A stretch of 64,000 nt of DNA, taken from assembly GCA_016787525.1 (NCBI GenBank), contig JAEUUP010000027.1:3058-67057 (forward strand), read 5' to 3'. A model generated the notes under the pieces. That model was not told the DNA's origin. It made no database searches and was given only the letters and a program-made list of their open reading frames with translations. The translations under genes and the position numbers were made by a program. Below are positions 9,679 through 56,512 of this stretch, piece after piece (the stretch's first letter is position 1; each line of letters begins with the position of its first letter). The stretch comes from Saprospiraceae bacterium (lineage in GTDB: Bacteria > Bacteroidota > Bacteroidia > Chitinophagales > Saprospiraceae).

Positions 9679-10728
9679 TCATTTCATTGTCTTTATCCAT
9701 TCACGAATCAATTCGACCCCCTCAGTATGCACCAACGCGCGACCTACTTCGGGCATCATTTCGCCTGGATTTGTCGTAGCCATGCGATACAACAAGATAC
9801 TCTCAGCGGGTTTTTGAGGAAAAATATCGTATTTCAAATTGCCCGAACCACGTCCAGCCGCCACAGGTGTTTTATAGAAGCCATAAGCCGTTGAATCTTT
9901 TGTTTTCCAATCTAAAAACAAACCCGATGTCACGGCTGGGCCACTCAAATTGTGACAATGGGCGCAATTGATGTCCAAATATGCCCGCGCTTTAGCATCT
10001 AAGGATGCCGCTTTATCCTCCCAATTTGGAAATTTTGGGACAGCTGTAATGTCCGGAGGCAACCCCCTCAGTATGCCAATCTTTGACCAATGTAGTAATT
10101 GATTTTCTGCGCCCAAATCTCCATTCAATTGCCGTGCAGAAGGCCCGATAGGCGACATTTTATCACCGCGAATATGACACCCACGGCATTGATTAACATT
10201 AGGAATCAAATAGTCGAAAGATTGTTTTTTACCTTTCGCATCTTTGAAAACCACTTTTTTAGTATCACCAGCAGGTTCTAAAGTCGCTTCTGTTTGCTCA
10301 TCGTTCCAAACATAAGGCAAAGCTACCCAGCCACCATCATCATCTCTCAAAAGAACCCTCGTTTCTAAAATACGTCGCCCTTTTTTCTCATCTTTAAAGT
10401 CATTGGGATAGTAAAAAGTCTTAATTATTTTAGTGCCAATCGGAAATTGCAAGACGGAATCAGCATTATAATCTACTGTTTTGCCATCAGGTAACTGCAC
10501 AAAGCGCAATTTTTGAGCATAATCTGAAAACAAAGGCATATTTAAACCATAATTTACAACACCCTTTGCAGGCTTTTGTTCCGACATTTTGCCCTCAAAA
10601 AAACCGTATTCTGACAGATTATCTTTGATAGTTGATGGCATTACTGAGGGGATGTCATTTGGTGAAAACGACATCAAAATCACAATAAAAACAAATAGAC
10701 AAAAAGTAAATAGTTTAAATTTAAGCAT
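9679..10728 (-). CDS. Di-haem c-type cytochrome family protein (secreted)
   Basis: 349 aa with a signal peptide and two CxxCH haem-binding motifs (CRGCH, CAHCH). Confidence 0.5.
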   Translation of the reverse strand: MLKFKLFTFCLFVFIVILMSFSPNDIPSVMPSTIKDNLSEYGFFEGKMSEQKPAKGVVNYGLNMPLFSDYAQKLRFVQLPDGKTVDYNADSVLQFPIGTKIIKTFYYPNDFKDEKKGRRILETRVLLRDDDGGWVALPYVWNDEQTEATLEPAGDTKKVVFKDAKGKKQSFDYLIPNVNQCRGCHIRGDKMSPIGPSARQLNGDLGAENQLLHWSKIGILRGLPPDITAVPKFPNWEDKAASLDAKARAYLDINCAHCHNLSGPAVTSGLFLDWKTKDSTAYGFYKTPVAAGRGSGNLKYDIFPQKPAESILLYRMATTNPGEMMPEVGRALVHTEGVELIREWIKTMK

Positions 10729-11164: not shown

Positions 11165-12070
11165 CTAATTCGGTTCTTTTTTAAGCTTTTCTTGTATGTC
11201 TAATACAAACGCTTCCGTCACATGTGCAACTTTTGCTATGCTGTTAATCGGTAACAGACCTTCTTTGAGCAGTTCCTTGATAATTTCAATTTTACCTTCA
11301 ATTATGCCTTCAATTTTACCCTCAGTCTTGCTCTTAACGATTAACTTTTGTGTTTCTTCTTTTTCGCGTTCTATTTCAGCTTGATTCACGAGCCAATATT
11401 GATAAGCTCGATACCTATCGGGTGACAAAGTACGAATATCAAGCTCACCTATCGGAATTTTGAGCCAATCTTCTTCCCAAAATGCGGGTTTTTCTGCAAT
11501 TTCTGCCATGATATGTGCATTTTTGATAGTGAAAATTAATTTTTCTAAGTCCGACTTCACTTTATCAGCACTTAAACTAAACTTTTCTAACTCTACTGTG
11601 ACGTATTGTATGGTACTTGGATACGCTACACCATCTTGATTTTTCAACGAAATAATGTTGTGGTAGCTTTCTACTTCATGAATATTCGTCCCTAAGATGG
11701 CGATGCAGTAGATTTTCTCTTTGATATTGAAGTCAAATTTACCTTTTCTCACCAAAGTATCAAAACTTTGAAACGCATAAAATTGCATTCGGTTCAAAAA
11801 ATACTCTTTGGCTATGCCTTGCATTTCGACAATAAATGTGTTACCTATCTCGTCGGTACACAGTACATCGAAAATGCCACTGCGGCTGTCTTTGATAAGA
11901 CCATCAAACGTATTTTTCAAAAAAGTTATTTCTTCAATTTTATGAGGCAATTTGAGCAAGGCTTGTAAAGCTCGTTTTAAAAAAACTGTATTTTTTTCAT
12001 TGCCAAAAGTGACTTTAAAGCCATAATCGGATGTAAAAGGTATGAAATTCAGTTTTCCCAATTCGTTCAT
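11165..12070 (-). CDS. Rpn/YhgA-like PD-(D/E)XK nuclease family 'putative transposase'
   Basis: 301 aa. N-terminal ...DYGFKVTFG...FLKRALQALL...DVLCTDEIGNTFIVEMQ... matches the conserved PD-(D/E)XK core of the Rpn family common in Bacteroidota, followed by a coiled-coil C-terminus. Confidence 0.65.
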   Translation of the reverse strand: MNELGKLNFIPFTSDYGFKVTFGNEKNTVFLKRALQALLKLPHKIEEITFLKNTFDGLIKDSRSGIFDVLCTDEIGNTFIVEMQGIAKEYFLNRMQFYAFQSFDTLVRKGKFDFNIKEKIYCIAILGTNIHEVESYHNIISLKNQDGVAYPSTIQYVTVELEKFSLSADKVKSDLEKLIFTIKNAHIMAEIAEKPAFWEEDWLKIPIGELDIRTLSPDRYRAYQYWLVNQAEIEREKEETQKLIVKSKTEGKIEGIIEGKIEIIKELLKEGLLPINSIAKVAHVTEAFVLDIQEKLKKEPN

Positions 12071-26730: not shown

Positions 26731-27114
26731 TTACTGAGGGGTGTCTTTCAAGTTTTGAATTTGAGCCAATAAGTCTGCTTTTTGGGCTTCGTAGATGGCT
26801 TTTTGCTCTTCATAAAATTTGGCTTTATTTTTAGTTTGAAAAATATCAAACCCCCATATAGCAAGCATGAGTATTCCACTAAGCAACCCTCCATTACCAA
26901 TAAATGACATAAAATATAAACAAATAATAGTCATACAGGCAAAAATCCAAAAGCCAATTTGTACGTCAGTACTATCTAATTTTGGAATAAAATCTTGTCC
27001 TCGCCCTACTACTTTAAAACCATCCTGCCGCCGCAGCCATTGTGCCTCCAATTCTGCGAGGGCTTTTTCTAATTTTAGAATATCTATTTGCGTTTGTGGA
27101 TTCATTTTTTCCAA
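26731..27114 (-). CDS. Hypothetical membrane protein with flanking coiled-coil segments
   Basis: 127 aa with two central TM helices. It overlaps the upstream gene end by 13 nt, which suggests an operon. Confidence 0.4.
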   Translation of the reverse strand: MEKMNPQTQIDILKLEKALAELEAQWLRRQDGFKVVGRGQDFIPKLDSTDVQIGFWIFACMTIICLYFMSFIGNGGLLSGILMLAIWGFDIFQTKNKAKFYEEQKAIYEAQKADLLAQIQNLKDTPQ

Positions 27115-28358
27115 TATTGATTTTTAAAATCGTCTCTTAAAAAAGGTTCAACAACTTTGTAGGGAATAAAAACGGGACTGACATACCAACCATGATTACC
27201 TTTCCCAACCATGTAAAAACCTTTGGAAGTGAAGCCGTTTGACATGTTAAGCAGTAATTCTCTTTTACCTTTATCGTCATATCGTGCCTCCAAATTAAAA
27301 TAGTTATCTATTGCTTCTGCAAATTTTTCTTCGTCGTAACTTTTCTTAAAAACCTCTTTTTCTGTTAGTTTTCTTTTTCTTTTTATGTCATACGTTTCAA
27401 AACTCACCCCAGCACCACCATAAGTATCCAATTCTGTATTTGACCAAAAGAGTTTGAATATAACAACTAAATCGTCATTATTCCAATAAATACTGTTCCT
27501 CGCAACCACTGAATATTCGCTATTTCTCAAATGCTCATCTTCTTCTAAATCTTTCAAAGCCACGTCAATCGCCTTAGTACCTTCGATGATAAATGAGTCA
27601 CAATGTATTTCACAATTACTATTGAGTTTTAAATGATTATTTAAAAAAAACAAAACATCTTTTTTATTGGCGGGTTTAGCAATAGGTAAACTTGAAGTGT
27701 AAACAATACTCATCTTTCTATCTTCTTTGAGTAATTTCTTTGTGTCTATGTATGGCTTATTGACAAAACACTCTGATAAATCAAATTGAGTCACCCCCTC
27801 AGTATTTGTCTCTTGAAATTCAAAAACACCCTGTATCAATGTCTTGTTATCCAAAATTAAACCTTTCAAAACATTTTTATCGCCAAAACTACCGAGCATC
27901 GTAAATAAATTATCAAAATTTGCTTCTGCTTTATCACTCACATAGAAATCAAGAAACTTCGCTGTATCTGATTTAACACCCCAAACTTCATAGGCTCGTA
28001 CTTTTGATGGAATGAAAACAGTACCCGCAAAAGCCCATTTACCATCATACGTTAAATGTGCAAAATTCAAGTTTAAAATGGCAGAATCACCATTGAAAAC
28101 GCCTACCATGTGTTTGTAGAAAGGACGGTTGAGCTTATTTAAGTTCATGGTAGGCACATTGGGAGTCATGATTTTTAAAACCGAATCTGTCAAACGTTCC
28201 CTTAGTTTATATTCAGAATCCAAAAGATTCATTTCGGGAATAGAATCTTTCTTTTCTTCAATTTGAGTGAGGTTTGCTTCTGGTTGTTTAGCGACTTTAT
28301 CGTGGCAACAAAAAAAGATGAATGTTGTGAAAACAGTAAGTAAAAAATTGATTTTCAT
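27102..28358 (-). CDS. Hypothetical lipoprotein/secreted protein (start chosen at MKINFLL; the ORF track extends to 28508)
   Basis: Signal peptide MKINFLLTVFTTFIFFCC. A terminator-like hairpin at 28446-28492 separates it from the upstream 76-aa ORF, which supports the shorter start. Confidence 0.45.
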   Translation of the reverse strand: MKINFLLTVFTTFIFFCCHDKVAKQPEANLTQIEEKKDSIPEMNLLDSEYKLRERLTDSVLKIMTPNVPTMNLNKLNRPFYKHMVGVFNGDSAILNLNFAHLTYDGKWAFAGTVFIPSKVRAYEVWGVKSDTAKFLDFYVSDKAEANFDNLFTMLGSFGDKNVLKGLILDNKTLIQGVFEFQETNTEGVTQFDLSECFVNKPYIDTKKLLKEDRKMSIVYTSSLPIAKPANKKDVLFFLNNHLKLNSNCEIHCDSFIIEGTKAIDVALKDLEEDEHLRNSEYSVVARNSIYWNNDDLVVIFKLFWSNTELDTYGGAGVSFETYDIKRKRKLTEKEVFKKSYDEEKFAEAIDNYFNLEARYDDKGKRELLLNMSNGFTSKGFYMVGKGNHGWYVSPVFIPYKVVEPFLRDDFKNQYWKK

Positions 28359-28509
28359 AAATTTAGTTTTAAAAACGGGTGGCGTAAAAATATAAACGTA
28401 AAAGTTTCGGAAACGATACGAACACCGAAAACGCTGCTGTTTACTCCCCTCAGTAAAACAGCCTTTGCACGGGTGTGCAAAGGCTGTTTTAATTAAAGAA
28501 TTCATCAAA

Positions 28510-28740
28510 TTAAGCGGCTTGTTTCAACTCAAACTGAACATCAATTTCAGCCAAAAGCGTTATTAACTCGGTGACGAGTTGCGCTTTCATCCTTTGCTTT
28601 GATTCAATCAAATACGCAGGGGCATCCATCGAAAGAGCTTGTTTGATGCCTGTGCTGTACATCTTTATCAATTCGACAGTGCGAGTGATGCGCGTCAAAA
28701 GTTCATCTTGATGGGTCGGATCATTTTGTATTGTTACCAT
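28510..28740 (-). CDS. Small hypothetical protein, partner of the upstream minimal nucleotidyltransferase
   Basis: 76 aa, helical composition. Its start is 5 nt after the stop of the MNT-like gene. No HEPN Rx4-6H motif is evident. Confidence 0.4.
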   Translation of the reverse strand: MVTIQNDPTHQDELLTRITRTVELIKMYSTGIKQALSMDAPAYLIESKQRMKAQLVTELITLLAEIDVQFELKQAA

Positions 28741-28744
28741 ATTT

Positions 28745-29188
28745 TTAAAAATTGAGTTGAATAATACCTTTTGGCTTGCCTAACCTATCACTTCCGTACA
28801 ATTCCAATTTTTCATTTTTACTGTAAATTGTAATGTATTGTTTAAAATCCTTTTCAGGATAAACGGGAACTGTGTAAGAATCAATATTTCGCCATCGAAA
28901 CTCATGTTCCCAATTTCTGATTCGATTTTCAAATTTACGGTAAAATTCCCAATCGACAAAATTTACAAGGTCTAAATCATTCGGAAAAGGCTTTTTTGTT
29001 ACAAAACTACCATCAAGCCATTGATAAAAATGTCCACAAGGCGCATTTTGAAACGCTTTCACCAGTTCAAGATATTGGTTAAAAATACGTTCCCGATGCT
29101 CATTAAAAACAAAGTGCGTTTTGAACGTTTCAAGTGTTGTCGGTATTACTTCATAAGGTATAAGATGACCGTTGTTGTCGAATAGCAT
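28745..29188 (-). CDS. Minimal nucleotidyltransferase (MNT, pol-beta fold) domain protein
   Basis: 147 aa. ...WLDGSFVTKKPFPNDLDLVNFVD... fits the GS-x9-DxD nucleotidyltransferase signature. Confidence 0.5.
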   Translation of the reverse strand: MLFDNNGHLIPYEVIPTTLETFKTHFVFNEHRERIFNQYLELVKAFQNAPCGHFYQWLDGSFVTKKPFPNDLDLVNFVDWEFYRKFENRIRNWEHEFRWRNIDSYTVPVYPEKDFKQYITIYSKNEKLELYGSDRLGKPKGIIQLNF

Positions 29189-29453
29189 GTTTTTTGATGT
29201 TTGTTTTAGAATAAAAAAATTGAGTCAAGGACAAATTTACATTTAACAATGATATTTAAGCGTTTTTGGGTACAATAGTCACATTTTTTACACAATATAC
29301 ATTGATTGAAAAAGAGCTTTCTAAAAAGACATTGTCTTGGCGTATTTCCCTAATTATCACAGAACTTATACGGAATATGCCGTGTCTTGATGTTTACCCT
29401 CAGTAAAAGAGCCTTTGCGTGGATATTGGGGGTATTAGCATTAAAATGCTTCA

Positions 29454-29912
29454 TTTTGCAAGTTGCAACGCACTTTTGCAAGTTGCAACGGACTTTTGCA
29501 ACTTGCAAAGGACTTTTGCAAATTGCAACGCACTTTTGTAAGTTGCAAAGGACTTTTGCAAGCTGCAACGCACTTTTGCAAATTGCAACGCACTTTTGCA
29601 AGCTGCAAAACACTTTTGCAAATTGCAACGCACTTTTGTAAGTTGCAAAGGACTTTTGCAAGCTGCAAAGGACTTTTGCAAGTTGCAACGCACTTTTGCA
29701 AGTTGCAACGCACTTTTGCAAGTTGCAACGGACTTTTCCAAGTTGCAAAGGACTTTTGCAAGTTGCAAAGGACTTTTCCAAGCTGCAACGCACTTTTGCA
29801 AGCTGCAACGCACTTTTGCAGCTTGCAACGCACTTTTGCAAATTGCAACGCACTTTTGCAAGCTGCAAAACACTTTTGCAAATTGCAAAAACCTTTTGCA
29901 CGCTGCAAAAAC
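29454..29912. repeat. Tandem array of ~23 units of a 20-bp repeat TTGCAAGTTGCAACGCACTT (variants GCAAAGGACTT / GCAACGGACTT / TTGCAAGCTG / TTGCAAATTG)
   Basis: Directly visible periodicity. Each unit carries the palindromic hexamer TTGCAA twice (GTTGCAAC is also self-complementary). All six reading frames are open across the array, which is a non-coding hallmark. Confidence 0.9.
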
Positions 29913-30141
29913 CGCTATAAGTGGGTAAAATGACTAAATGACCTGCGGCAAACCCTTTGGGCATGAATATGAGTTCAATTAAATGCTATCGTTAAGCTAA
30001 AAACGGACGTGTCTGAAGGACTCTTTTGGAGAAATACAGAAATCAGAGACCCCTCAGTATTAGAGAAACCAAACTCCAAAATAGTCCTTTGGATAGTGTC
30101 GTTCGTTTGTGTCAGCGGGATAAGCACATTGTATAATTAAC

Positions 30142-31191
30142 TTACTCATTGATATGGTTAGTATAAAATATCGCAAAGCCAATAAACATCGATAGAATCA
30201 TAAAAAATCGAAAACCAACTCCATCTTCTGCATAAGCATGTCCACCGCTGTTGATATATTCTGATAATGTGTAATAAACGGTTTTCGAAGTTGTTTTTTC
30301 TATTTGACAAGGTTCGATAAATTCATATTTATCAAAAAAATCTTTCCACGTAGGCTTAACTGTTTGAGCGATTTTATAATTGAAATCTCTTTTAGTAATC
30401 ATCAAACGCAAGGAATCGCGTAAGATGATTGGGTCGTTTTTTAAATTTTTATTCGATAAAGCTTTGAACGCAGCACCGTCAATAGTAAACCTAAAATCGG
30501 CATATTGGGCTAATTTCAAATCGTACCAATGAGAGTTTTTATTGCGTCTTTCCATAAATTCAGATACTGTACCAACAATAGCTACAACATTGTTATTGTT
30601 AAGCGGAGGTTCGGGTTTATAATCAGAATTGATAATAAAGTTAAAAATCAGTAACAAAAGGCTTGATAAGGCAATGCCAATGCCTAATTTACGATAATTT
30701 CGACGAGAAAATATATTTGTACAATTAACATCCTGTTTTGCAAAGTGTGTAATTAATTCTGAAATAGTTTTAAACTCATCATGAGATGAACAACTTTCTG
30801 ATGACATTTGAAAGTATTGGTTATCAACTGTTTGACAATTTAAAATATACCAAGTGCCGTTTTTCCCTTTATGAATATCAATGTCGTAGTTGATAATGTC
30901 TTTATATAGAATTTGGGTTCTTTTGCTTCTAAATCGTTTATAGCTAATTAGAAAAGTATCATAAAAATCGAAACAATCTTTTTGAAAATAACGCCATAAA
31001 AAATAAGACATAATAATAATACAGGAGCAATTGAAAGACACAAAAGTCAAATTAGGATACTTTGTCGTTAATATATAAAATGCTAAAATAAAAAGCCCCA
31101 AAATCCCAGAACCTAAAAGTATAGGTGCTATTAAAGATGGTCTATAATGGAATTTTGATATTTCAGATAATGATTTAGAAGATTCAGACAT
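30142..31191 (-). CDS. Hypothetical multi-pass membrane protein
   Basis: 349-aa ORF with several hydrophobic helices and no recognisable catalytic motif. Confidence 0.35.
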   Translation of the reverse strand: MSESSKSLSEISKFHYRPSLIAPILLGSGILGLFILAFYILTTKYPNLTFVSFNCSCIIIMSYFLWRYFQKDCFDFYDTFLISYKRFRSKRTQILYKDIINYDIDIHKGKNGTWYILNCQTVDNQYFQMSSESCSSHDEFKTISELITHFAKQDVNCTNIFSRRNYRKLGIGIALSSLLLLIFNFIINSDYKPEPPLNNNNVVAIVGTVSEFMERRNKNSHWYDLKLAQYADFRFTIDGAAFKALSNKNLKNDPIILRDSLRLMITKRDFNYKIAQTVKPTWKDFFDKYEFIEPCQIEKTTSKTVYYTLSEYINSGGHAYAEDGVGFRFFMILSMFIGFAIFYTNHINE

Positions 31192-31227
31192 ACTTGTTTT
31201 GATGATTAAAATTTAAGAAAAAGAGTG

Positions 31228-31647
31228 TCAAATGCTTTTAAAACATTTGACTATTTCAAAAAAACTTTGTACCATAAGATAAGCAGGATAATAAATGACT
31301 TTAAGGAAAATTAAAGTGCGATTGAAATCATCTGAATATCGAAATGGATGGTCAATCATACCACCCAATAAGCCGATATTGTCGTATCGTGGTTTAGCGT
31401 CAAAAATATAGCCAATTAGTAGATAAACAAGAAAGAATCCCAATCCTACAATGACATACTTAATCTTTACTGCTTGAAGATCCTGTTTGCTAAACTCAAA
31501 AATATAGTAAACACATACCCAAAAACAAATTTGTCCTAAAATGAGGATGAGAAAATTAATGGGTTCATTGGGTTTATTTTCTCGTACTTTAACGCTTCCT
31601 GTCGGATGTGTTTTTTTAGCTTCCCATAGCCATTCAATTACACTCAT
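31228..31647 (-). CDS. Hypothetical small membrane protein
   Basis: 139 aa with 3-4 predicted TM helices. Confidence 0.35.
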   Translation of the reverse strand: MSVIEWLWEAKKTHPTGSVKVRENKPNEPINFLILILGQICFWVCVYYIFEFSKQDLQAVKIKYVIVGLGFFLVYLLIGYIFDAKPRYDNIGLLGGMIDHPFRYSDDFNRTLIFLKVIYYPAYLMVQSFFEIVKCFKSI

Positions 31648-34712: not shown

Positions 34713-34784
34713 AAAGATGGAGATACTGAGGGGGTAAAACAAAAAAGGCAGCTTGCAAATGAATGCAAACTGCCTTTTGTTGTG

Positions 34785-35173
34785 TGGAGCTGGAGGGCAT
34801 CGAACCCTCGTCCGGTCAAAGCATCAGAGAGCTTTCTACATGTTTAGTCGCCATATTTGTTTTTTCGAGCTGTGGGGAGGTTGGGCGACACACCCAGACC
34901 GCAGCCTTATCTCTTTGGATTTCGCCAACAGCCAGAGCGCTCTGTTAACTATTCTGATTAGGGATGATACGCCGCACGGCAGAAATCAGACAATCTGCGA
35001 AGACCACGTAGGTCGTGTGCTGAGCGCAAAGGCATTCTAACTCCTAGAATTAGGCTGCCATGGCATATTGATAGTTGCCAGCTGTAGTTTAAAGTACCGT
35101 TTTACGGGAGGTAACATCATAGCCCGACATGCTTACTAACCAATTCACTTTCCCGTCGAATCCAGTCAGCCCC
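34785..35173 (-). ncRNA. ssrA: tmRNA (SsrA), predicted tag approximately A-GNYQYAMAA
   Basis: Reverse complement starts GGGGCTGACTGGATTCGACGGG and ends GGACGAGGGTTCGATGCCCTCCAGCTCCA, which are the canonical tmRNA 5' end and tRNA-like 3' end. The internal reading frame GCT GGC AAC TAT CAA TAT GCC ATG GCA GCC TAA follows an in-frame stop. Confidence 0.85.
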
Positions 35174-35416: not shown

Positions 35417-36850
35417 ATGAATCAAAAAGCAATTTGGGTTATCATTGGGTTAATGTCGTTGGCGGTTATCGGGGTACTGTCATTGCAGATGAGTTTTATC
35501 AACAACAGCCGTCGGTTGAACGAAGAACAGTTCGATAAACACATCTCTGCCAGTATGCGAACAGTTGCCAAACGGCTTGAAAATGTGGAGAACATCCAAG
35601 TTACGAACTTTGCTAATGGCTTCTCCATCAAGCACTTAGAGGTAGATACATCCAATGGTAGTTTTCGCTATCAACAACGAACTATGATGTCGAATGACCC
35701 CTCAGTATTGCGCCAAACGATGGATGCCGTTCAGTTGAAACAAGAAATGTTCAATACTCCCATCGAAGAGCGCATTGATGTGGTGCAACTCGACCATTTT
35801 TTGAAAGAAGAATTGGGCAGTGATATTCCATTCAGCTACGGTGTCTGGTCGAATGGTGACAACTGTTTTGTCATTTTCAATAACCAATATATCGTTCCGA
35901 CTCAAAATCAAGTTGACTACCGCTATTTGAAATCCTCGGAATACAAAACCAATCTGTTTCCCACTGATATCAATAACCCTGGTACGTTACATGTTTTTTT
36001 TCCTACCAAATCCGCCGTTGTTTGGGGGCGTTTGTGGCTCGATTTGCTGATGTCTCTTTTGTTTGCTGCCATCATTTTGGGTTCTTTTGCCTACACGATT
36101 AATGTCATTTTGCAACAGAAAAAGTTATCTGAAATGAAAAATGACTTTATCAACAATATGACACACGAGTTCAAAACGCCGATTGCAACTATTTCCTTAG
36201 CTTCTGACTCCATCACCAACCCCTCAGTCATCAACAATCCTGACAAAGTCAAACGTTTTGCCGACATCATTCGCCAAGAAAATAAACGAATGCACGGTCA
36301 GGTCGAAAAAGTGTTGCAAATGGCACTGGTAGAACGAGGTAAAATTAAGTTGAACTTCACAGAGGTTAATTTACATCAAGTTATCGAGCAAGCTGTCGGC
36401 AATATGAGCCTACAAGTTGAACGCAAAGATGGCACTGTTGCAGCCGAACTTCGAGCAGACAAACATTATATTGAAGGTGATTTAAATCATATTTCAAATG
36501 TGATCAACAATCTTTTGGACAACGCTAATAAATATTCGCCCGAAAAACCAGAGATAATCGTCTCTACCCGCAATGTTGCCAATGGTATCGAGGTCACCGT
36601 GTCGGATAAAGGCATTGGTATGTCGAAAGAAGCGAAAAAGCGTATTTTCGAGAAGTTTTACCGTGTCCATACAGGCAATTTGCACGATGTCAAAGGTTTT
36701 GGTTTGGGTTTGGCTTACGTCAAAGCGATGGTGACAGCGCACAAAGGTTCAATTGATGTCAAATCGGAATTGGGTAAAGGTTCAAGTTTTATCCTACTTT
36801 TCCCTTTCAAAGTTGGTCAAGACTCCGTTGAACATGAGGAAGAGGGCTGA
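35417..36850 (+). CDS. Sensor histidine kinase (two TM, HisKA + HATPase_c)
   Basis: H-box MTHEFKTPIATI, N-box NLLDNANKYS, G-boxes DKGIGM and GFGLGL. Confidence 0.75.
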   Translation: MNQKAIWVIIGLMSLAVIGVLSLQMSFINNSRRLNEEQFDKHISASMRTVAKRLENVENIQVTNFANGFSIKHLEVDTSNGSFRYQQRTMMSNDPSVLRQTMDAVQLKQEMFNTPIEERIDVVQLDHFLKEELGSDIPFSYGVWSNGDNCFVIFNNQYIVPTQNQVDYRYLKSSEYKTNLFPTDINNPGTLHVFFPTKSAVVWGRLWLDLLMSLLFAAIILGSFAYTINVILQQKKLSEMKNDFINNMTHEFKTPIATISLASDSITNPSVINNPDKVKRFADIIRQENKRMHGQVEKVLQMALVERGKIKLNFTEVNLHQVIEQAVGNMSLQVERKDGTVAAELRADKHYIEGDLNHISNVINNLLDNANKYSPEKPEIIVSTRNVANGIEVTVSDKGIGMSKEAKKRIFEKFYRVHTGNLHDVKGFGLGLAYVKAMVTAHKGSIDVKSELGKGSSFILLFPFKVGQDSVEHEEEG

Positions 36851-37147
36851 AGAAAAAGCTCCCTCAGAAGCTGTTTTAAAACCTATAAACACTATTTTTG
36901 ACTGTTTTTCTGCTCCGAAGGAGTCCCTTTGGACAAGCAGAAAAAAGCGTGCTTTGTTATATTTCCTTCGGAGCGAAGCTATTTTTTGATGTTTTTCGCA
37001 AGCGAAAAACATCAAAAAATAGCTTCGCTCCATAAAAGACCATTCTTGTACGCTTTTTTTCGCTTGTCCAAAGGACTCCTTCGGAGCGAAAAAACAGTGC
37101 GTGATTGTTCGATTAGGTTTTAAAATAGCTTCTGAGGGAGCTTTTTC
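36851..37147. mobile_element. ~300-bp nested-palindrome MITE-like element (full copy)
   Basis: Outer 32-bp IRs GAAAAAGCTCCCTCAGAAGCTGTTTTAAAACC (36851) and GGTTTTAAAATAGCTTCTGAGGGAGCTTTTTCC (37115). Inside is the REP-like core forward (36901-36950) and reverse (37051-37099), flanking a perfect 31-bp-arm central hairpin (CGGAGCGAAGCTATTTTTTGATGTTTTTCGC | GCGAAAAACATCAAAAAATAGCTTCGCTCCG). The element begins at the histidine kinase stop codon. Confidence 0.6.
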
Positions 37148-37290
37148 CATATTTCATAACTCATATTTGATTTATACCACCCCCTCAGTATTTTGCCCGT
37201 TTTAAAAGATAAAATGGGCGAACACCTGTATTTTATCGTATTTTTGCCCTTTCAAAAACTTATTTACATGACATCAATTTCACAACACTC

Positions 37291-38364
37291 ATGAGGAAAC
37301 CACCATTTCTATTGGCTTTCGCACTATTAGCATTCGTTGCCTGTGTTCCTGTAAAAAAACCTGAAGACGACATAAAACCTGAAGACGCTGTTTGGCAAAT
37401 GGTTGCTGATATAAACGCTTCTGACAGTCAAATTAGGTCTATCTATGCCACACCATTTGAAATCTATTTTGCATCCGATAGTTACCTTTTTCGATTAGAT
37501 ACCGCTTTCAAATTGCTCGAAAAAAGGATTCTAACGCCTATTGACCGTTCGCCCTATCGTCGAGTTATTATGAGTGACAACACGTTCACACGACTCTATC
37601 AAGGTGCGTCGGGTGCTTATACATTAGAGTTTAGGCACACCCGTAATTCCAATGTAATCAAACGTTTTACAACAACTGAATTGGTGGACACTGCCAGAAG
37701 GGAAACTTTCGATATGGAAACCAATATCCGTCAATATGGCTGCTACAACAGCGATGGCACTAAATTCATGCTGCCAGGTCGCCTTTTGCCCGCCAATAAG
37801 CCTTATGTGCTGCTTTTAGATGTCAATTTGACTTTTTTGCAGGATGACATAGCAAGTGTCAAAGTCGCCAAACGAGTCGAGTTGCCTAATTTGAATATTG
37901 ATAAATTTGAATCTTTCCGCTATTTGAATGGCAATTTTTATATCGCCACTTATGAAGGCGGTTTTCGTATCACGCCTGATGGGCAAGTACGCAAATTGTT
38001 CAATAATTGGGTCAAAGACTTCTTTGCCATTGGCGACAAACTCTATGTGACTGGCGGCGGTGACTACGATTTTCAAACATCCACCGACAATGGTTTGACA
38101 TGGAAACGTTCTCTGCCCAGTTCTTTAAAATACATCGAAACAGCCAATAACAAGGTTTTCTCACATGCTTTGACGGGTTTACCTTTTGGTTTGGCAGATT
38201 CTTCGTTGACAAAAGTTCAACCTTTGAAATACAATACCGATATGACTTTTGGCAATGTTTCGGACTTTGATATTGCTTATTTCAAAGGACGTTATTTCAC
38301 TAATTCAAAATTAGGTAAAAATGAAGTGCATGTTTTTCTAACTAAAATATTGCAAACCAAATAA
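37291..38364 (+). CDS. Hypothetical lipoprotein
   Basis: 357 aa. Signal peptide with Cys (LAFVAC). Confidence 0.4.
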   Translation: MRKPPFLLAFALLAFVACVPVKKPEDDIKPEDAVWQMVADINASDSQIRSIYATPFEIYFASDSYLFRLDTAFKLLEKRILTPIDRSPYRRVIMSDNTFTRLYQGASGAYTLEFRHTRNSNVIKRFTTTELVDTARRETFDMETNIRQYGCYNSDGTKFMLPGRLLPANKPYVLLLDVNLTFLQDDIASVKVAKRVELPNLNIDKFESFRYLNGNFYIATYEGGFRITPDGQVRKLFNNWVKDFFAIGDKLYVTGGGDYDFQTSTDNGLTWKRSLPSSLKYIETANNKVFSHALTGLPFGLADSSLTKVQPLKYNTDMTFGNVSDFDIAYFKGRYFTNSKLGKNEVHVFLTKILQTK

Positions 38365-38380
38365 TTAGAGAAAAACTTTA

Positions 38381-38432
38381 CCCCTCAGTAAAAAAGCCTT
38401 CGCAAGCCTGTGAAGGCTTTTTTCATTTGTAG
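38381..38432. terminator. Motif-plus-hairpin terminator element (CCCCTCAGTAAAAAAGCCTTCGCAAGCCTGTGAAGGCTTTTTT)
   Basis: Uptake-like motif followed by a GC stem (AGCCTTCGCA...TGTGAAGGCT) and a T-run, immediately 3' of the + strand gene ending at 38364. Confidence 0.5.
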
Positions 38433-38642
38433 CACCATTGGTTTATTGCTCAAAAAAGAACGCTCAAAAGAAGAATTTGCCCTAAAAATTACTTTTGGTT
38501 TAAAAATTATGACCATTAGTTGAAGAGAATTGGCTCTAAAAGCCCGTTGCTGCACCTTTGTATCACAAAACAGCCAAACAAATTATGTGCGCTGTTTGCG
38601 ATAGTATCTTAAATTTCTAAATTTTCAAAAAACGTCTTTACG

Positions 38643-39539
38643 ATGAAAACAATCAAGCAACTCGCGCTGATGAGCGCAGCACTTTTCTATTGCCTTATGC
38701 TCCATGCAGCTACACCGAACAACACAATCGCACCCAATGCCGTTGACCCTAAACTATTGGCGCAATCTGCGACTACCGCCAGCAGTATCGCCGATTTGAT
38801 ACTCGAAGCCATTATGAATTTTACGCCGACCAATTACCCCACCAAGCCTGTGACATTGGGCACTTGCCCTGTCGTCACACTCACGCCGAGTGGCACGAGC
38901 AATCCATTTCCATGCAGCATCAAGATTGATTTTGGTGCAGGCTGCACGACACGTTCGGGTGCTTATGCCGAAGGTTCTGCCACCGCTACGTTTACGAATC
39001 GGGTGAGTATTCCGAATGCACAAGTCAATTGCACGTTCACCAATTTCAAATACAATGGTATATTGACCTCTGGGGCAATTAGCTTTACGATGGAAGGCAA
39101 TGATTTTGTTGCCTATCAAAACATCAAAATTGTTGCAACAGACTTGTACATGCGCGTTGGTTTGCAATCTGTTACATACAAAACACTCGAAATGCGCCGC
39201 AAACAAGTCGGCGGTTTGGAAACGATTCCATCGTATCAAGGCAATTTTGAATGGATAAAAGACGATGTGTATGAAACAGAAATCACAAAAGGAGAATGCG
39301 TGTTTTTGGGCGAAAAAACCAGTAATGTGGCTGTCGAAGCGACCGTCGTAACAACTAAAAACTTGACAAAAGCCTACACCTGTCAATATCCTTCATCGGG
39401 CATTCTGAAACTGACTGGCACAGAAAAAGATTCTTATGCCACCGTTGATTTTGGCAATGGCACATGCGACAATACGATAATCATTAAAATGGGTGACAAT
39501 CCAAGAGGACTCGAAGTACCACTACCTGCACGTCCTTAG
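38643..39539 (+). CDS. Hypothetical secreted protein
   Basis: 298-aa ORF with a signal peptide. Confidence 0.4.
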   Translation: MKTIKQLALMSAALFYCLMLHAATPNNTIAPNAVDPKLLAQSATTASSIADLILEAIMNFTPTNYPTKPVTLGTCPVVTLTPSGTSNPFPCSIKIDFGAGCTTRSGAYAEGSATATFTNRVSIPNAQVNCTFTNFKYNGILTSGAISFTMEGNDFVAYQNIKIVATDLYMRVGLQSVTYKTLEMRRKQVGGLETIPSYQGNFEWIKDDVYETEITKGECVFLGEKTSNVAVEATVVTTKNLTKAYTCQYPSSGILKLTGTEKDSYATVDFGNGTCDNTIIIKMGDNPRGLEVPLPARP

Positions 39540-39558
39540 TGAGCAATAAAGTAATGTA

Positions 39559-39611
39559 CCTCTCAGTAAAAAAGCCTTTGCGATGTTGCGAAGGCTTTTT
39601 TACTGAGGGGT
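39559..39611. terminator. Hairpin flanked by inverted motif copies (CTCAGTAAAAAAGCCTTTGCGATGTTGCGAAGGCTTTTTTACTGAGGGGT)
   Basis: Near-perfect palindrome with an A/T stretch, 20 nt after the stop of the + strand gene. Confidence 0.5.
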
Positions 39612-39680
39612 ATGTATCTTAAAAAAGAAGGCAAGAATAGGGAAGTCTAATGTCAAACTAAAAATAAGCAACTTTCAATT

Positions 39681-40271
39681 TCAAAGAATGACCTTTCTAA
39701 AAGTCAATGAAACGCGGCGTTTCCGTTGAAAAACTTGATTTTCAAACACATCTTTTTGTCTTGCAGGTATCGAATGAGTCCATTCATAACGACTTTCGCC
39801 TTTCAGAATGACGGCACTACGAGGTTCAAGTAGGATAGGAATTTTAATATTGTTTCTACAAAATTCCATAACGGCGGTTGAATTGAGTGAAATAGACACA
39901 ATTGTATCTTCAAAACAAGGTTCACAATCAATATGTGGGCTGATACCTTGTCCAGGCTCATATTCATTGACGATAACTTGGTCTGGTATATCCTCAAATA
40001 CCCCCTCAGTATAAAGGCGTTTTGCGATGTTTTCTAAACAACTTGGCAACGTCCCTATTTTCATAGACACATCAATGCGTCGCGCTCGGTAGTCGTATTT
40101 GTACCCATAATGTTGCACTCGGCGTTTTAAATCCAAAAGCCAATTTTGAGCATCAATTTGGGTAAATAAAAATGCTTCCTCTTCCTGCGAGATATAATTT
40201 GGATGATAAGACAGCCCCGCAATAGGGTTTGAATACACTTCTTTTTGAAACAGATTGAGTTGATTGGACAT
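39681..40271 (-). CDS. alkB: AlkB-like Fe(II)/2-oxoglutarate-dependent dioxygenase (DNA/RNA alkylation repair)
   Basis: 196 aa. HxD...H triad context (GISPHIDCE ... H) and C-terminal RVSLTFR, which carries the 2OG-binding Arg. Confidence 0.65.
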   Translation of the reverse strand: MSNQLNLFQKEVYSNPIAGLSYHPNYISQEEEAFLFTQIDAQNWLLDLKRRVQHYGYKYDYRARRIDVSMKIGTLPSCLENIAKRLYTEGVFEDIPDQVIVNEYEPGQGISPHIDCEPCFEDTIVSISLNSTAVMEFCRNNIKIPILLEPRSAVILKGESRYEWTHSIPARQKDVFENQVFQRKRRVSLTFRKVIL

Positions 40272-40353
40272 TTTTTAGGGCAAAAATACACTTTTTGTGT
40301 GTTATTATGAAGCTGAAAATTTGATTAAAGCAATACAATTGAAAACAAAATTG

Positions 40354-41058
40354 TTAATTTTTACCTGTACTCAAACTATCAATACCATAATGAATGCCAT
40401 TTTTTCTGAAAAAATCTTTGAACAAATCATAAAGTTCAGGGCATTCATCAATTTGACTCAAATAACCTAAATTATCAGGAGTATAACAGCGGTATTGACC
40501 GCATTCAAAGCAAATTTCAAAATTCATTATTGGTTTATTTTGTTTATCAAAGAATACAATAGCATTCCGTGGTCGGTAGCAGCATGAAATACTTCTCGAA
40601 CCATGTATAAGGCGATAATTAGTTGTATAATTTTCACAGAAATAACTCAACGAATCTATTTGTGTTTCATTTAATTCCAATTTCTCATAAACAGAATAGA
40701 CTTTTCCTAAAACTTTTATAGTATCTAAAATCGGGCGAGTTATTTTTACAGGAATGTCTTTTCCCATCAAATTTCTTTTCCTTTCCAATTTTTCTCCCTC
40801 AGGCGAAACAATCGTATCCGTATAGGTTCTTATATCGTTTTCCCAAATTTCATAATCAGGAAACGACACCAACACAATTTTAGCCGCTTCATTAAACGGG
40901 TATATTTTACGACATTCATCTACAGTTTTTTTACCATACCAACCACAATGAATTTTCCCTTGCTCGTGCAAACGTTGTTCTTTTTTGAATGTATATTTTT
41001 GACAGCTTACTAAAAATATAAGGGCTGATGTGATGATTATTAACTTATTCATATTCAA
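40354..41058 (-). CDS. Hypothetical lipoprotein (Cys-rich)
   Basis: 234 aa. Signal peptide plus lipobox-like LVSC. Confidence 0.35.
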   Translation of the reverse strand: MNMNKLIIITSALIFLVSCQKYTFKKEQRLHEQGKIHCGWYGKKTVDECRKIYPFNEAAKIVLVSFPDYEIWENDIRTYTDTIVSPEGEKLERKRNLMGKDIPVKITRPILDTIKVLGKVYSVYEKLELNETQIDSLSYFCENYTTNYRLIHGSRSISCCYRPRNAIVFFDKQNKPIMNFEICFECGQYRCYTPDNLGYLSQIDECPELYDLFKDFFRKNGIHYGIDSLSTGKN

Positions 41059-41145
41059 CGGTTTATTTGATATGGTTTGTAAAACAAAAAGCCGATACCC
41101 CTCAGTATATCGGCTTTTGTTTCATTTCAGATATTTGAAAATCAA

Positions 41146-47223: not shown

Positions 47224-47233
47224 GGGTTGTATT

Positions 47234-47344
47234 ACTGAGGTTTGGGAGCGTTCTACTGAGGGGGTGATAAGTTCTACTGAGGTTTGAGAGCGTTCTACTG
47301 AGGGGGTGATTTGAAATCACCCCCTCAGTAGAACCATTTTCGAG
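47234..47344. repeat. Cluster of five TACTGAGG-family motif copies: two 40-bp direct repeats plus a 19-bp-stem perfect hairpin
   Basis: GTTCTACTGAGGTTTGrGAGCGTTCTACTGAGGGGGTGAT repeated twice, then GTTCTACTGAGGGGGTGAT-ttgaa-ATCACCCCCTCAGTAGAAC. Lies immediately 3' of folD. Confidence 0.85.
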
Positions 47345-47345
47345 G

Positions 47346-47722
47346 TTACTTGCTCCAATTTTGAGCTTGCTTGCTCAATTTTTGAGCTTGCTTGCTCCAA
47401 TTTTGAGCTTGCTTGCTCCAATTTTGAGCTTGCTTGCTCCAATTTTGAGCTTACTTGCTCAATTTTTGAGGTTGCTTGCTCAATTTTTGAGCTTGCTTGC
47501 TCAATTTTTGAGCTTGCTTGCTCCAATTTTGAGCTTACTTGCTCAATTTTTGAGGTTGCTTGCTCAATTTTTGAGCTTACTTGCTCAATTTTTGAGGTTG
47601 CTTGCTCAATTTTTGAGCTTACTTGCTCAATTTTTGAGCTTGCTTGCTCAATTTTTGAGCTTGCTTGCTCCGATTTTGAGCTTGCTTGCTCAATTTTTGA
47701 GCATCTCTCCTCCATTTTTGAG
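47346..47722. repeat. ~18 tandem copies of a 21-bp repeat TTGCTCAATTTTTGAGCTTGC; the minus-strand frame encodes the heptad (SSKIEQA)n
   Basis: Visible 21-nt periodicity. Variants alter only I/L and A/V/T positions of the heptad. The ORF track shows a 132-aa minus-strand ORF (47317..47715) and a 131-aa plus-strand ORF over the same repeats. Confidence 0.85.
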
Positions 47723-53431: not shown

Positions 53432-53442
53432 AATAGTGCTTT

Positions 53443-53474
53443 TACTGAGGGGTGGATTAATCTACCCCTCAGTA
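53443..53474. terminator. Inverted motif pair hairpin (TACTGAGGGGTGGA-ttaa-TCTACCCCTCAGTA) 12 nt after the stop of the large ORF
   Basis: Directly visible palindrome. Confidence 0.5.
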
Positions 53475-53482
53475 TATCAAAA

Positions 53483-54299: not shown

Positions 54300-56423
54300 A
54301 TGCAAAAGGAAACAGAAGAACAATTAGCTATCAACGAAATAGAAGAAATTCACACAATACCTTTTATCCAAAGAGATAGAAGTTGGTTGAGCTTCAATCA
54401 TCGTGTTTTGCAAGAAGCCAAAGACCCGATTGTGCCATTGATGGAAAAAATCAAGTTTTTGGCGATATACTCATCCAATCTCGATGAGTTTTTCCGCGTC
54501 AGAGTGGCTCAACACCGCAGTTTGATTCGTCTTTCTAAAAAAACGAAAAAGGAATTGGACTACAATCCTAAAAAAACACTCAAGTCACTTCTGCGTATTG
54601 TGAACGAACAACAAATGGAGTTCAGCCGTATTTTTATGGAAGAAATCATCCCCGGCTTGCGCGAACACAATATTTTCCTGATGCGTCGGCTCGATTTGAG
54701 CAAAGAACAAAATGCCTTCGTCGAGTCTTATTTTCAAGAGAATCTACTGCCGTTTGTTCAGCCCGTTATACTTGTCAAAGACAAAATTCGCTTTTTTTTG
54801 AACAATGCGGCTTTGTATTTGGCCGTTGCTTTGGTTTCAAAAGACAGTTATACATCCAAAACGGAATACGCTATTGTCAAAATCCCAAGCGATTTTTTAC
54901 CGCGATTCATCGAATTGCCCTCGAAAAGTGGGCGACATGAGGTGATGATGCTCGACGACATCGTGCGTCATTCTGTTGCTTGGTTATTTCCTGGCTACGA
55001 CATCATTGACACCTATTCCATCAAGTTGACACGCGATGCAGAACTCTATATTGACGATGAATTTACAGGTAACTTGATTCAAAAAGTGAAATCGAGTCTC
55101 CAAAAACGGAATGTCGGTCCCGCCTCTCGATTCGTTTATGACCGCACCATTCCGCAACAATTTCTCGATTTTTTGAGCAATACTTTTGACCTCGAAAAGA
55201 CCGATATGTTGCCCGAAGGTCGCTACCACAACAATTTCGACTTTTTCAAATTTCCCGATTTCGGTTTATCGCAACTCAAATACAAATCCCTGCCACCGCA
55301 GAAATACCCTGCTTTGGAAGATGCAGAAGACTTTTTCAACGTCTTTTCGGAACGCGACCACTTGTTGCATTTCCCTTACCAAAGTTATGAGTCCGTCATC
55401 CGTTTCTTTGAAGCCGCCGCAGAGGACCCCTCAGTATCGCACATCAAAATTGTGCAATATCGGGTTGCCAAAAAAAGTCGCATCATGCGTGCTTTGATGA
55501 AAGCAGTTGAAAATGGCAAACAAGTCTCCGTTTTCATTGAAGTAAAAGCGCGATTTGACGAAGAAGCCAATATAAAATGGGGCGAAGCTCTGCAAAAAGC
55601 GGGTGTTGCGGTCTATTATTCGATGCCAGGCATCAAAGTTCACTCAAAATTGGCTTTGGTGAGTCGCAAAGAAGGTCGAAAAGAAAAACTCTACGCCTAC
55701 CTCGGCACGGGCAACTTCAATGAAGATACCGCTAAGGTTTATTCCGATTTGTGCATTTTCACCACCGACGAACGTTTGACTAAGGAAATTGCCCGCGTTT
55801 TCCGCTATTTAGAAACGGCCAACAAAGAAGGCATACAACCTTTCAAACATCTTTTAGTCGGACAATTCAATCTGCGGGAAGGTTTGGTTGCAAAAATTGA
55901 CCGCGAAATCGCCTTTGCCAAAGCAGGAAAGCCCGCTTCGATGATATTGAAAATGAACAGTTTATCCGATACGGATATGATTACAAAACTCTACGAAGCT
56001 TCTCAGGCAGGCGTTAAAATCAAAATCATCACGCGTGGTATTTGCTCGCTTGTACCGAACGTCAAAGGTTTTAGCGAAAACATAGAAATCATCAGTATTG
56101 TAGATAGATTTTTGGAACATGCCCGCGTTTTCATTTTCAATAACGGTGGCAAAGAAGAAATTTACCTATCCAGTGCCGATTGGATGACTCGAAATTTGTC
56201 GCATCGCGTTGAAACGTCTTTTCCGATTTATGATGCAAAATTGCGGCAAATCATCAGACAAGTCATTGATTATCAACTCAATGATAATGTAAAAGCCCGC
56301 ATCCTCAATGAAGAACAAGACAATTCTTATCGCAAAGACGAAAGTGAAATCGCTGTACGAGCGCAAATTGAAACTTATTATTATTTCATGCGACTCAACA
56401 GTGCAACCCTACCCCCTCAGTAA
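54300..56423 (+). CDS. ppk: Polyphosphate kinase 1
   Basis: 707 aa. ...RDRSWLSFNHRVLQEA...AIYSSNLDEFFRVRV... is the PPK1 N-domain, and two PLD-like C-terminal domains follow. Confidence 0.85.
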   Translation: MQKETEEQLAINEIEEIHTIPFIQRDRSWLSFNHRVLQEAKDPIVPLMEKIKFLAIYSSNLDEFFRVRVAQHRSLIRLSKKTKKELDYNPKKTLKSLLRIVNEQQMEFSRIFMEEIIPGLREHNIFLMRRLDLSKEQNAFVESYFQENLLPFVQPVILVKDKIRFFLNNAALYLAVALVSKDSYTSKTEYAIVKIPSDFLPRFIELPSKSGRHEVMMLDDIVRHSVAWLFPGYDIIDTYSIKLTRDAELYIDDEFTGNLIQKVKSSLQKRNVGPASRFVYDRTIPQQFLDFLSNTFDLEKTDMLPEGRYHNNFDFFKFPDFGLSQLKYKSLPPQKYPALEDAEDFFNVFSERDHLLHFPYQSYESVIRFFEAAAEDPSVSHIKIVQYRVAKKSRIMRALMKAVENGKQVSVFIEVKARFDEEANIKWGEALQKAGVAVYYSMPGIKVHSKLALVSRKEGRKEKLYAYLGTGNFNEDTAKVYSDLCIFTTDERLTKEIARVFRYLETANKEGIQPFKHLLVGQFNLREGLVAKIDREIAFAKAGKPASMILKMNSLSDTDMITKLYEASQAGVKIKIITRGICSLVPNVKGFSENIEIISIVDRFLEHARVFIFNNGGKEEIYLSSADWMTRNLSHRVETSFPIYDAKLRQIIRQVIDYQLNDNVKARILNEEQDNSYRKDESEIAVRAQIETYYYFMRLNSATLPPQ

Positions 56424-56512
56424 AAACCGCTGAAAACGAATATGAGCGCCATCCCACATCGCCGTGAGATGGCTCATATTCATTTATTCGAGGTGAAATA
56501 CCGTTTATTTTT

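Follow-up and report, generated by a model that had tools for sequence, protein, structure and literature searches.

The repeated elements of this region were probably bidirectional terminators of accessory genes that abut a short motif, and they formed a small paralogous family, with the motif being a separate genome-wide feature similar to the uptake sequences of the DUS/USS type. The window, which is the whole stretch of 64,000 nucleotides analysed from a Saprospiraceae bacterium, contained three full copies and one decayed copy of an element of about 50 bases, laid out as motif, A-run, GCCTT(T/C)GC hairpin and T-run. The earlier note had reported four loci with a shared ~50-bp element, and these were present as described. 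An independent repeat search placed the four loci in one 45-nt family (D3). A covariance model was made with 14 members of the family; it gave the full copies 61-66 bits (E ~1e-11), and the next unrelated match in the window had 23 bits. We suggest that the elements should best be annotated as motif-tagged bidirectional terminators and not as a REP-like transposable family.

Anatomy and folding of the elements

The full copies followed the consensus CC(C/T)CTCAGTA, AAAA(A/C), AGCCTT(T/C)GC(A/G); a loop of 4 nt came next, then the arm complementary to the first and finally a T-run. Their stems were 9-12 bp long and were followed by T4-T6, with dG values of -17 to -27 kcal/mol and z values of -3.2 to -13. 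The dG of the copy at 39557 was -44 kcal/mol once its flanks were included. The A-tract on the 5' side (AAAA(C) or A6) mirrored the T-tract on the 3' side ((G)TTTT or T6), and folding was observed on both strands. Small accessory genes ended 17-24 nt from the full copies. From this anatomy, we infer that the elements would terminate transcription. The order of motif and then AAAA, which had been proposed previously, was correct, but the AAAA was not part of the motif. The motif proper stopped at ...CAGTA, and only 11 of its 78 copies continued with AAA. A logo made from 229 copies carried information over 11-12 nt only, (A/C)CCCCTCAGTA(T/A), with none beyond +1, and the AAAA positions were at background. 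We read the AAAA after the motif as the A-tract of a Rho-independent terminator that works in both directions.

The stem sequence AGCCTTYGC was observed nine times in the window against 0.89 expected, and six of the nine occurrences fell within the four elements. Rfam at the gathering threshold assigned no family to the elements. Permissive E-values gave generic hairpin, ctRNA and leader-peptide matches, all far under the gathering scores; weak matches of this kind (ctRNA and leader-peptide families) were located at 38360-38430 and 41009-41122.

The first copy (28444..28492) consisted of the motif at 28446-28455 (+), an A-tract, a perfect 12-bp hairpin at 28459-28486 and a T-run. Its sequence from 28446 was CCCCTCAGTA-AAAC-AGCCTTTGCAC-gggt-GTGCAAAGGCT-GTTTT. 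It folded with a dG of -27 kcal/mol (z -7.1 on the + strand and -6.3 on the - strand), and the covariance model gave 61.3 bits. On the - strand, the T-tract was supplied by the complement of the motif (GTTTTACTGAGGGG). The copy was located 24 nt past the stop of a 76-aa gene (28510..28740, - strand), between this stop and the start of a lipoprotein gene. A long ORF that apparently overlapped 28446 had been given a wrong start. The true start of the lipoprotein gene was 28357 (MKINFLL...), and because of this correction the copy was intergenic.

The locus at 29394..29441 contained the motif variant ACCCTCAGTA, AAAG, the 5' arm AGCCTTTGCG and then TATTGGGGGTA, an inverted motif that had degenerated. 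Both the 3' arm and the T-run were deleted, so no hairpin followed by a T-run was found there. Its composition was TACCCTCAGTA-AAAGAGCCTTTGCGTGGA-TATTGGGGGTA, in which TACCCTCAGTA paired with the degenerate TATTGGGGGTA. The identity to the reference copy of family D3 was 64%, and the covariance model gave 18.4 bits (E 0.096). The locus was 206 nt upstream of the start of a DUF6932 gene and adjoined a 20-bp tandem array. It had been described, at 29397, as partial. This was correct for the absent 3' arm, but the locus was not merely partial, and it was a decayed symmetric copy in which the inverted motif was kept in degenerate form.

The third copy (38379..38425) had the motif at 38381-38390 (+), A6, a hairpin at 38396-38417 (9 bp with one G-U) and T6, with the sequence CCCCTCAGTA-AAAA-AGCCTTCGCA-agcc-TGTGAAGGCT-TTTTT from 38381. 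Its dG was -19.7 (z -5.2), and it scored 65.6 bits. It began 17 nt past the stop of the gene at 37291..38364 (+) and was 218 nt upstream of the gene at 38643..39539 (+). The fourth copy (39557..39612) carried CCTCTCAGTA at 39559-39568 (+), a hairpin at 39574-39595 and CCCCTCAGTA at 39601-39610 (-), and from 39559 it read CCTCTCAGTA-AAAA-AGCCTTTGCG-atgt-TGCGAAGGCT-TTTTT-ACTGAGGGGTA. It was a near-perfect palindrome of 56 nt with the motif on each flank, corresponding to an inverted repeat (I16) with 25-nt arms that were 92% complementary. The dG was -44.3 (z -13.2), and the covariance model gave 63.1 and 60.0 bits. This copy was located between convergent genes, 38643..39539 (+) and 39681..40271 (-, 2OG-Fe(II) oxygenase), and it followed the stop of the first (39539) by 18 nt, with 69 nt separating it from that of the second (39681).

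Homology of the copies

Comparison of the sequences indicated that the copies were truly homologous, related by descent and not merely convergent terminators. The alignment of the 14 family members, which came from six genomes, had a mean column identity of 78%, and the pair 25-38 was C-G in six sequences and U-A in six. Covariance-model matches of 54-69 bits were confined to the clade. The stem was common to the copies, and the loops were partly shared (ACACCCGT, ACACCTGT, ACAGCTGT and ATCCTGT). The half-copy at 29394, which did not fold, retained 22 nt of identity. Other genomes of the clade had copies with 85-88% identity whose flanks were unrelated. The copy at 28446 was 88% identical over 43 nt to positions 313-355 of L105, one of the other loci compared (numbered with L), and the flanks were dissimilar.

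The link between this stem and the motif was strict. At loci that were unselected for the motif, the motif abutted the tract in 7/7 hairpins of the GCC(T/C)T(T/C)G(C/T) class and in 0/12 other AAA-GCC...GGC-TTTT hairpins (Fisher ~2e-5). When positional homologues were collapsed, the counts were 5/5 and 0/8 (~8e-4). Every hairpin of this stem class at these loci had an abutting motif or a motif remnant. The shared stem and loops, the half-copy, the near-identical copies elsewhere and this contrast upheld the claim that the loci are copies of one element rather than independently evolved terminators. As a counterpoint to the terminator reading, the conservation of stem and loop and the strict link of the stem class to direct motif abutment exceeded what termination alone needs.

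In several one-sided copies, the T-run was followed by what was left of another motif (ACTGATT, ACTGTAT and ACTGAGAT), which suggested that the unit began as a symmetric palindrome and then decayed. Since near-identical copies were present in unrelated flanks, some relocation mechanism exists. The copies might have been duplicated along with cassettes, exchanged with the help of homology as in the minimal mobile elements of Neisseria, or moved by a trans-acting enzyme.

The motif and its relation to terminators

The full motif was (A/C)CCCCTCAGTA(T/A), and its core CCCCTCAGTA was found 78 times in 64 kb, where 0.01 copies were expected, which was about one per 0.8 kb. The coding sequence contained 58 of the 78 copies, and 20 were intergenic. 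A Chi- or KOPS-type polarity of the motif was dropped because there was no strand bias (37 copies on + and 41 on -); the orientations were mixed within long co-oriented gene runs. The density was 7-12 per 10 kb where the AlaS identity was at least 80% (80-88%). The motif was absent from L208 (AlaS 77%) and L209 (AlaS 69%). More distant Bacteroidota loci, 870 kb in total, contained no copies; this negative control consisted of metagenome contigs matched by histidine kinase, with relatives of at most 64% identity. The motif appeared to be confined to a narrow clade. It behaved like a DNA-uptake sequence (DUS/USS), and by analogy it might act as an uptake signal. No competence genes were seen within the 64-kb window. 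A literature search with the motif string gave unrelated papers only, and none was on bacterial repeats. The searched literature linked no uptake sequence to Saprospiraceae or Bacteroidota, and it did not document natural competence or uptake specificity for Saprospiraceae or any Bacteroidota.

The intergenic copies of the motif were frequently near hairpins. The window had 18 terminator-like hairpins, and 12 of the 20 copies were no more than 30 nt away from one of them. Motif and hairpin were arranged in at least four ways. The motif abutted the A/T-tract in the three full elements. In the case of an unrelated terminator 3' of alaS (41091..41114), the motif formed the loop, GCCGATA-CCCCTCAGTA-TATCGGC, and this arrangement was conserved in L199 and L203. 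An inverted motif pair made the hairpin stem itself between convergent genes at 53440..53477, with the motif at 53443-53452 (-) and 53465-53474 (+). A stem of this kind was also present at 47292..47334, where two inverted motif variants formed a perfect palindrome of 43 nt (CCCCCTCAGTAGAAC; dG -35.8) flanked by 21-bp tandem arrays. The pair at 39557-39612 merely extended the stem, and at 28444 and 38379 a lone motif was outside a separate GC stem. Finally, the motif was 14-16 nt off the hairpin at 34724, 48713 and 56413. The first of these was the tmRNA terminator (34724..34774), in which a reverse-oriented motif was 14 nt upstream of the hairpin at 34747-34774. At the end of the polyphosphate kinase gene (56413..56481), the motif was in the final codons and an unrelated 44-nt hairpin (56438-56481) followed 16 nt further.

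At orthologous terminators, the gain, loss or flip of the motif is independent of the hairpin. The hairpin of the tmRNA terminator was present in L103 and L201 with the neighbouring motif in the opposite orientation to that in the window. The hairpin at 44676 was without the motif in the window and with it in L199, L201 and L203, and hairpins that were apparently homologous to it carried the motif in L205 and L207. The four elements held only ~5 of the 78 motif copies (~6%). Because of this small share, the earlier note's proposal that the element was a vehicle by which the motif spreads was unsupported; most copies were coding, and the motif was independent of the hairpins. This shows that the spread of the motif was independent of the elements.

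Distribution of the copies

The window contained 3.5 copies, and all of them were inside 11 kb (28.4-39.6 kb). The covariance model gave no match of at least 36 bits in the remaining 49 kb of the window, nor in L199, L203, L204, L205 and L207 (95 kb), which together were ~144 kb of other unselected sequence of the clade. The copies were clustered in the variable alaS-histidine kinase-tmRNA region of the window, L201, L206, L103 and L075. The flanks of the 14 copies were compared, and they had nothing in common beyond the motif and no target-site duplication.

This distribution bears on the possibility, which was the view of the earlier note, that the element is a non-autonomous mobile palindrome of the REP/REPIN or MITE type. 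The unit would be a 56-nt TACC(C/T)CTCAGTAAAAAAGCCTTYGC...GCRAAGGCTTTTTTACTGAGGGGTA that moves by a function supplied in trans, enters intergenic sites and takes the motif with it. Homologous copies, some with unrelated flanks in different genomes, would be expected from such a unit, as would the 25-nt inverted arms at 39557-39612, the truncated copy at 29394 and the second-motif remnants, which suggest birth as a symmetric unit. At unselected loci, direct abutment of the motif was seen with this stem class alone, and this also favoured a mobile unit. However, the copies were few and local in the sequence available, and they had neither a target-site duplication nor a conserved terminus except the genome-wide motif. 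There was no conserved GTAG head, and a Pfam search of the predicted proteins of the window found no Y1/RAYT, IS200/IS605 or integrase gene. The sole transposase-like match in the window was a PDDEXK_2 protein (11165..12070). A pattern scan of genome contigs with CCTCAGTAAAANAGCC (15 specified bases) gave at least 118 matching stretches, of which ~75% were chance matches in unrelated phyla. Among the scan matches listed, two thirds of the motif+A6+GCC hairpins had unrelated stems, and therefore the architecture also arises without this element. Only the small share of motif copies mentioned above was in such elements, and none of the elements was found in viral contigs. We consider a mobile palindrome unlikely, and the description of the family as a REP-like dispersed element was not supported.

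The scans of viral contigs gave no evidence for a phage vehicle. The composite element was not found in the viral contigs scanned. Inverted motif pairs gave 20 matches there, of which 18 were lone chance hairpins, and extra motif copies were present in L215 and L227 only.

Bracketed cassettes and the variable slot

The gene content of the window was typical of a Bacteroidota chromosome, with an FtsL_2/mraZ division cluster, T9SS C-terminal sorting domains and tmRNA. Its 298-aa protein and its AlaS were 100% identical to proteins of a Saprospiraceae MAG (locus tag JNL70_06060). A contig search with the 357-aa protein gave no exact record.

The copies were usually paired and bracketed cassettes of one or two genes, and six such cassettes were found. 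Two of them were in the window. The pair at 28444 and 29394 bracketed the 76-aa gene and the DUF6932 gene (PADLOC candidate family PDC-M63A), and the pair at 38379 and 39557 bracketed a 298-aa orphan. The other four were DUF2147 in L105 (309/923), a 105-aa gene with DUF4365 in L075 (4669/5628), Uma2 in L206 (12897/13629) and a 121-aa gene in L103 (5176/5671). Both copies in L075 had the unusual arm GCCCTCGCG in common. L206 contained three toxin-antitoxin-like (TA-like) cassettes, and the same 59-nt terminator plus motif followed each of them. The cassettes were in both orientations and had their own upstream regions of ~30-220 nt.

The window, L199, L201, L206 and L103 had different genes between alaS and the histidine kinase/tmRNA. 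The alaS-to-histidine kinase slot held genes for 232 aa, a 2OG oxygenase, 298 aa and 357 aa in the window, 358 aa (EAD11) and tmk in L201, and Uma2, DUF389 and tmk in L206. Downstream of alaS, L199 had 175 aa, a 2OG oxygenase, tmk and GH43, on a contig without the kinase. The alaS-histidine kinase interval had the arrangement of a minimal-mobile-element slot, namely conserved genes with differing whole-gene cassettes between them. The copies at L201 9644, L103 5671 and L206 13629 were mutual positional homologues. Two family members, L206 13629-13675 and L201 9644-9691, were between divergently oriented genes, where a terminator is unneeded, and a remnant of a degraded gene was beside the latter. 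The copies at 38381 and L201 9652 were considered as positional orthologues on the basis of their 357- and 358-aa neighbours. This was rejected because tblastn showed that the proteins were unrelated.

It is doubtful that the symmetric unit is a joint that moves defence/TA-type cassettes, in which uptake-signal palindromes at both ends would lead to preferential uptake and to re-integration at other copies. We also regard it as quite unlikely that the palindromic units are recombination sites at cassette boundaries, that is, att-like or homology-facilitated joints for the swap of accessory and defence-type cassettes, with two copies bracketing each cassette and the swap possibly following motif-guided DNA uptake. 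The six bracketed cassettes, the unusual arm common to both copies of L075, the differing genes of the alaS-histidine kinase/tmRNA slot and the repeated terminator plus motif of L206 were consistent with such joints. However, consecutive transcription units that end in terminators give identical bracketing without recombination. The upstream copy was usually the terminator of the preceding gene, as in the case of 38379 for the 357-aa gene and L075 5628 for alaS. Neither an integrase in the window nor an attC-type R'/R'' core (GTTRRRY) in the elements was found, the cassettes did not all point the same way, and they brought their own upstream regions. In addition, the pairs in the window were just 64-84% identical.

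It is highly improbable that the copies are independent convergent terminators, with AAAAAGCC...GGCTTTTT as the optimal design at 40% G+C and the remaining similarity due to chance: GCC-then-T-rich stems were common in terminators of the clade with or without the motif (GCCGTTGCAAAC, GCCTTTTGCT, GCCTTGAAAA and GCCTTTGAGTG), and composites with other stems scored continuously from 58 down to 36 bits, so that the class boundary was fuzzy, but the excess of AGCCTTYGC, the shared loops, the arm sequence kept by the non-folding half-copy and the contrast in motif abutment already disfavoured this explanation.

Proposed origin and significance

As motif-abutting bidirectional terminators, the elements would close the transcription units of small accessory genes in a variable chromosomal region. 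Each of them adjoined a copy of the clade's hyper-abundant 10-11-mer (A/C)CCCCTCAGTA(T/A). Like DUS and USS, the motif accumulates at and near terminators; it is tolerated there, and the T-tract runs straight into TACTGAGGGG. The family probably originated as a symmetric palindrome with the order motif, A6, hairpin, T6 and inverted motif. As to the mode of spread, we infer that the copies may have been propagated with or beside one- and two-gene cassettes by duplication or recombination, and that one-sided decay followed.

A hyper-abundant, lineage-specific motif in or beside terminators is the long-known genomic signature of the uptake sequences of Neisseriaceae and Pasteurellaceae. The same signature was seen here in a freshwater Saprospiraceae lineage, whose phylum had no uptake sequence in the searched literature, and sequence-specific transformation in Bacteroidota becomes directly testable. 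If true, a minimal mobile element flanked by uptake sequences would be indirect evidence of sequence-specific natural transformation in Bacteroidota. Related terminators that are paired around one- or two-gene defence/TA-like cassettes also give a concrete handle on the turnover of accessory genes in the alaS-tmRNA region.

Comparison with known systems

Correia repeat-enclosed elements (CREE) and other MITEs are palindromic and intergenic units with inverted termini that can affect the transcription of neighbours, which resembles the elements described here. CREE are roughly 100-150 nt long. In contrast, our elements measured 47-56 nt and had neither an internal core nor a target-site duplication, be it TA or another. 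Unlike in MITEs, the second terminus was missing in most copies, and two termini were present at 39557 only. Similar to REP/BIME and REPINs, the elements were short, imperfectly palindromic and located where genes end, and they were sometimes paired and formed sequence families; REP/BIME and REPINs can serve as terminators or mRNA stabilisers. However, the alignment of the 14 copies was without GTAG, and the conserved head was the genome-wide CCCCTCAGTA. The copies were few and clustered in the sequence available, and no RAYT was present in the window. The sole strongly conserved end was a motif with 78 copies in the window, mostly within genes.

The elements resembled the attC sites of integrons, which are imperfect palindromes a few nt past the stops of small accessory genes, and as in cassette arrays, related palindromes separated consecutive cassettes. 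However, no R''/R' core sites (RYYYAAC...GTTRRRY) were seen on inspection, and there was no intI in the window. Unlike integron cassettes, those described here had mixed orientations and their own upstream regions. The minimal mobile elements (MME) of Neisseria are defined by conserved flanking genes. As in MMEs, the alaS-histidine kinase/tmRNA slot held differing whole-gene cassettes, and the lineage had an uptake-like motif. In contrast, repeated palindromes at the cassette joints are not part of the MME definition, and exchange by transformation is hypothetical here.

The closest analogue of the elements appeared to be the terminator that bears a DUS or USS. In Neisseriaceae and Pasteurellaceae, DUS and USS are frequently within terminators as inverted repeats. 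Unlike those terminators, the stems described here formed a paralogous family, and the uptake bias and the receptor are putative here. The motif of the four elements was outside a separate conserved GC stem, with an A-tract between them, and was not the stem itself. The host also differed, since it belongs to Bacteroidota, a phylum without a described uptake sequence in the searched literature. However, the lineage-specific motif of 10-12 nt was present about once per kb on both strands, in genic and intergenic positions, as in the case of DUS and USS. It was strongly enriched at and near terminators, in part as inverted pairs by which the stem was made or extended, and the pairs at 39557-39612 and 53440-53477 would be direct analogues of inverted DUS pairs.

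Surroundings of the composite elements

The composite elements, which were read as motif-tagged bidirectional terminators, were located in two stretches of the window (26731-31647 and 36850-41146), and both stretches held orphan or candidate-defence genes. The DUF6932 gene found there corresponded to the PADLOC candidate family PDC-M63A. The 298-aa protein had a single database match, at 100%, and no Pfam matches were obtained for the 357-aa and 232-aa proteins. The G+C content fell to 35% within 28-32 kb of the window. The motif density there was normal, at approximately 1 per kb. Between the gene for the 357-aa protein and a histidine-kinase gene, a nested, near-perfect palindrome of approximately 296 bp was observed (36852-37147). 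The complementarity of its arms was 97% over 34 nt, 90% over 29 nt, 92% over 25 nt, and 100% over 30 nt.

Three intergenic tandem arrays with units of 20-21 bp were identified, and their unit sequences were unrelated to one another. Two were in the window, at 29454-29888 (21.8 copies) and at 47233-47303 and 47336-47722 (18.4 copies), and the third was in the sister genome L201 at 9824-10079 (12.2 copies). Each was adjoined by a motif/hairpin element. The array at 29454 was directly bordered by the decayed element (29394-29441), a composite copy without the 3' arm and T-run. The long ORFs spanning tandem arrays, 29350..29964 and 47317..47715, were probably spurious.

Other genes of the window and comparison loci

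At 11165-12070 (-), the window carried a gene for a PD-(D/E)XK 'transposase' (PDDEXK_2), and the stretch around it was syntenic with locus L090. A Transposase_31 gene adjoined alaS in locus L205 (12806-13765). No connection of these two genes to the composite elements was found. The tmRNA gene of the window (34782-35173, -) was uninterrupted. In the sister genomes L103 (2036-2648) and L201 (12538-13148), an Rfam group I intron match and the tmRNA match overlapped at the 3' end of the latter. A LAGLIDADG ORF lay directly past this region in L201 and in locus L202.

Three tandem toxin-antitoxin-like cassettes of the PIN and Zeta-toxin families, spaced by approximately 1.3 kb, were found in locus L206 (17274-20079). 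All three were followed by a shared 59-nt terminator (GCCTTGTAGCATG stem) with T7-GATTCTT-TACTGAGGGG, and a conserved 65-nt stretch was also present 3' of two of them. This 59-nt unit is a second repeated terminator+motif family, whose stem is unlike that of the composite elements.

The 10-mer motif

The 10-mer CCCCTCAGTA, with the logo (A/C)CCCCTCAGTA(T/A), occurred 78 times in the 64 kb of the window, compared to 0.01 expected (for example at 851, 16397, 24604, 41098, and 53443). Across the window, both strands were used equally and 58 of the 78 copies were intragenic. Only genomes with at least 80% AlaS identity carried the 10-mer, at 7-12 per 10 kb, and it was not found in a genome at 77%. 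Several motif copies were present on two IMG/VR contigs, L215 and L227 (6 over 6 kb and 3 over 1.5 kb), which may be phages or prophages of the motif-bearing clade. The remaining 18 IMG/VR matches of the inverted-pair scan were dismissed as lone chance hairpins. The abundance pattern of CCCCTCAGTA is a signature like that of DUS/USS, the DNA-uptake sequences of Neisseriaceae and Pasteurellaceae, in a Bacteroidota lineage.
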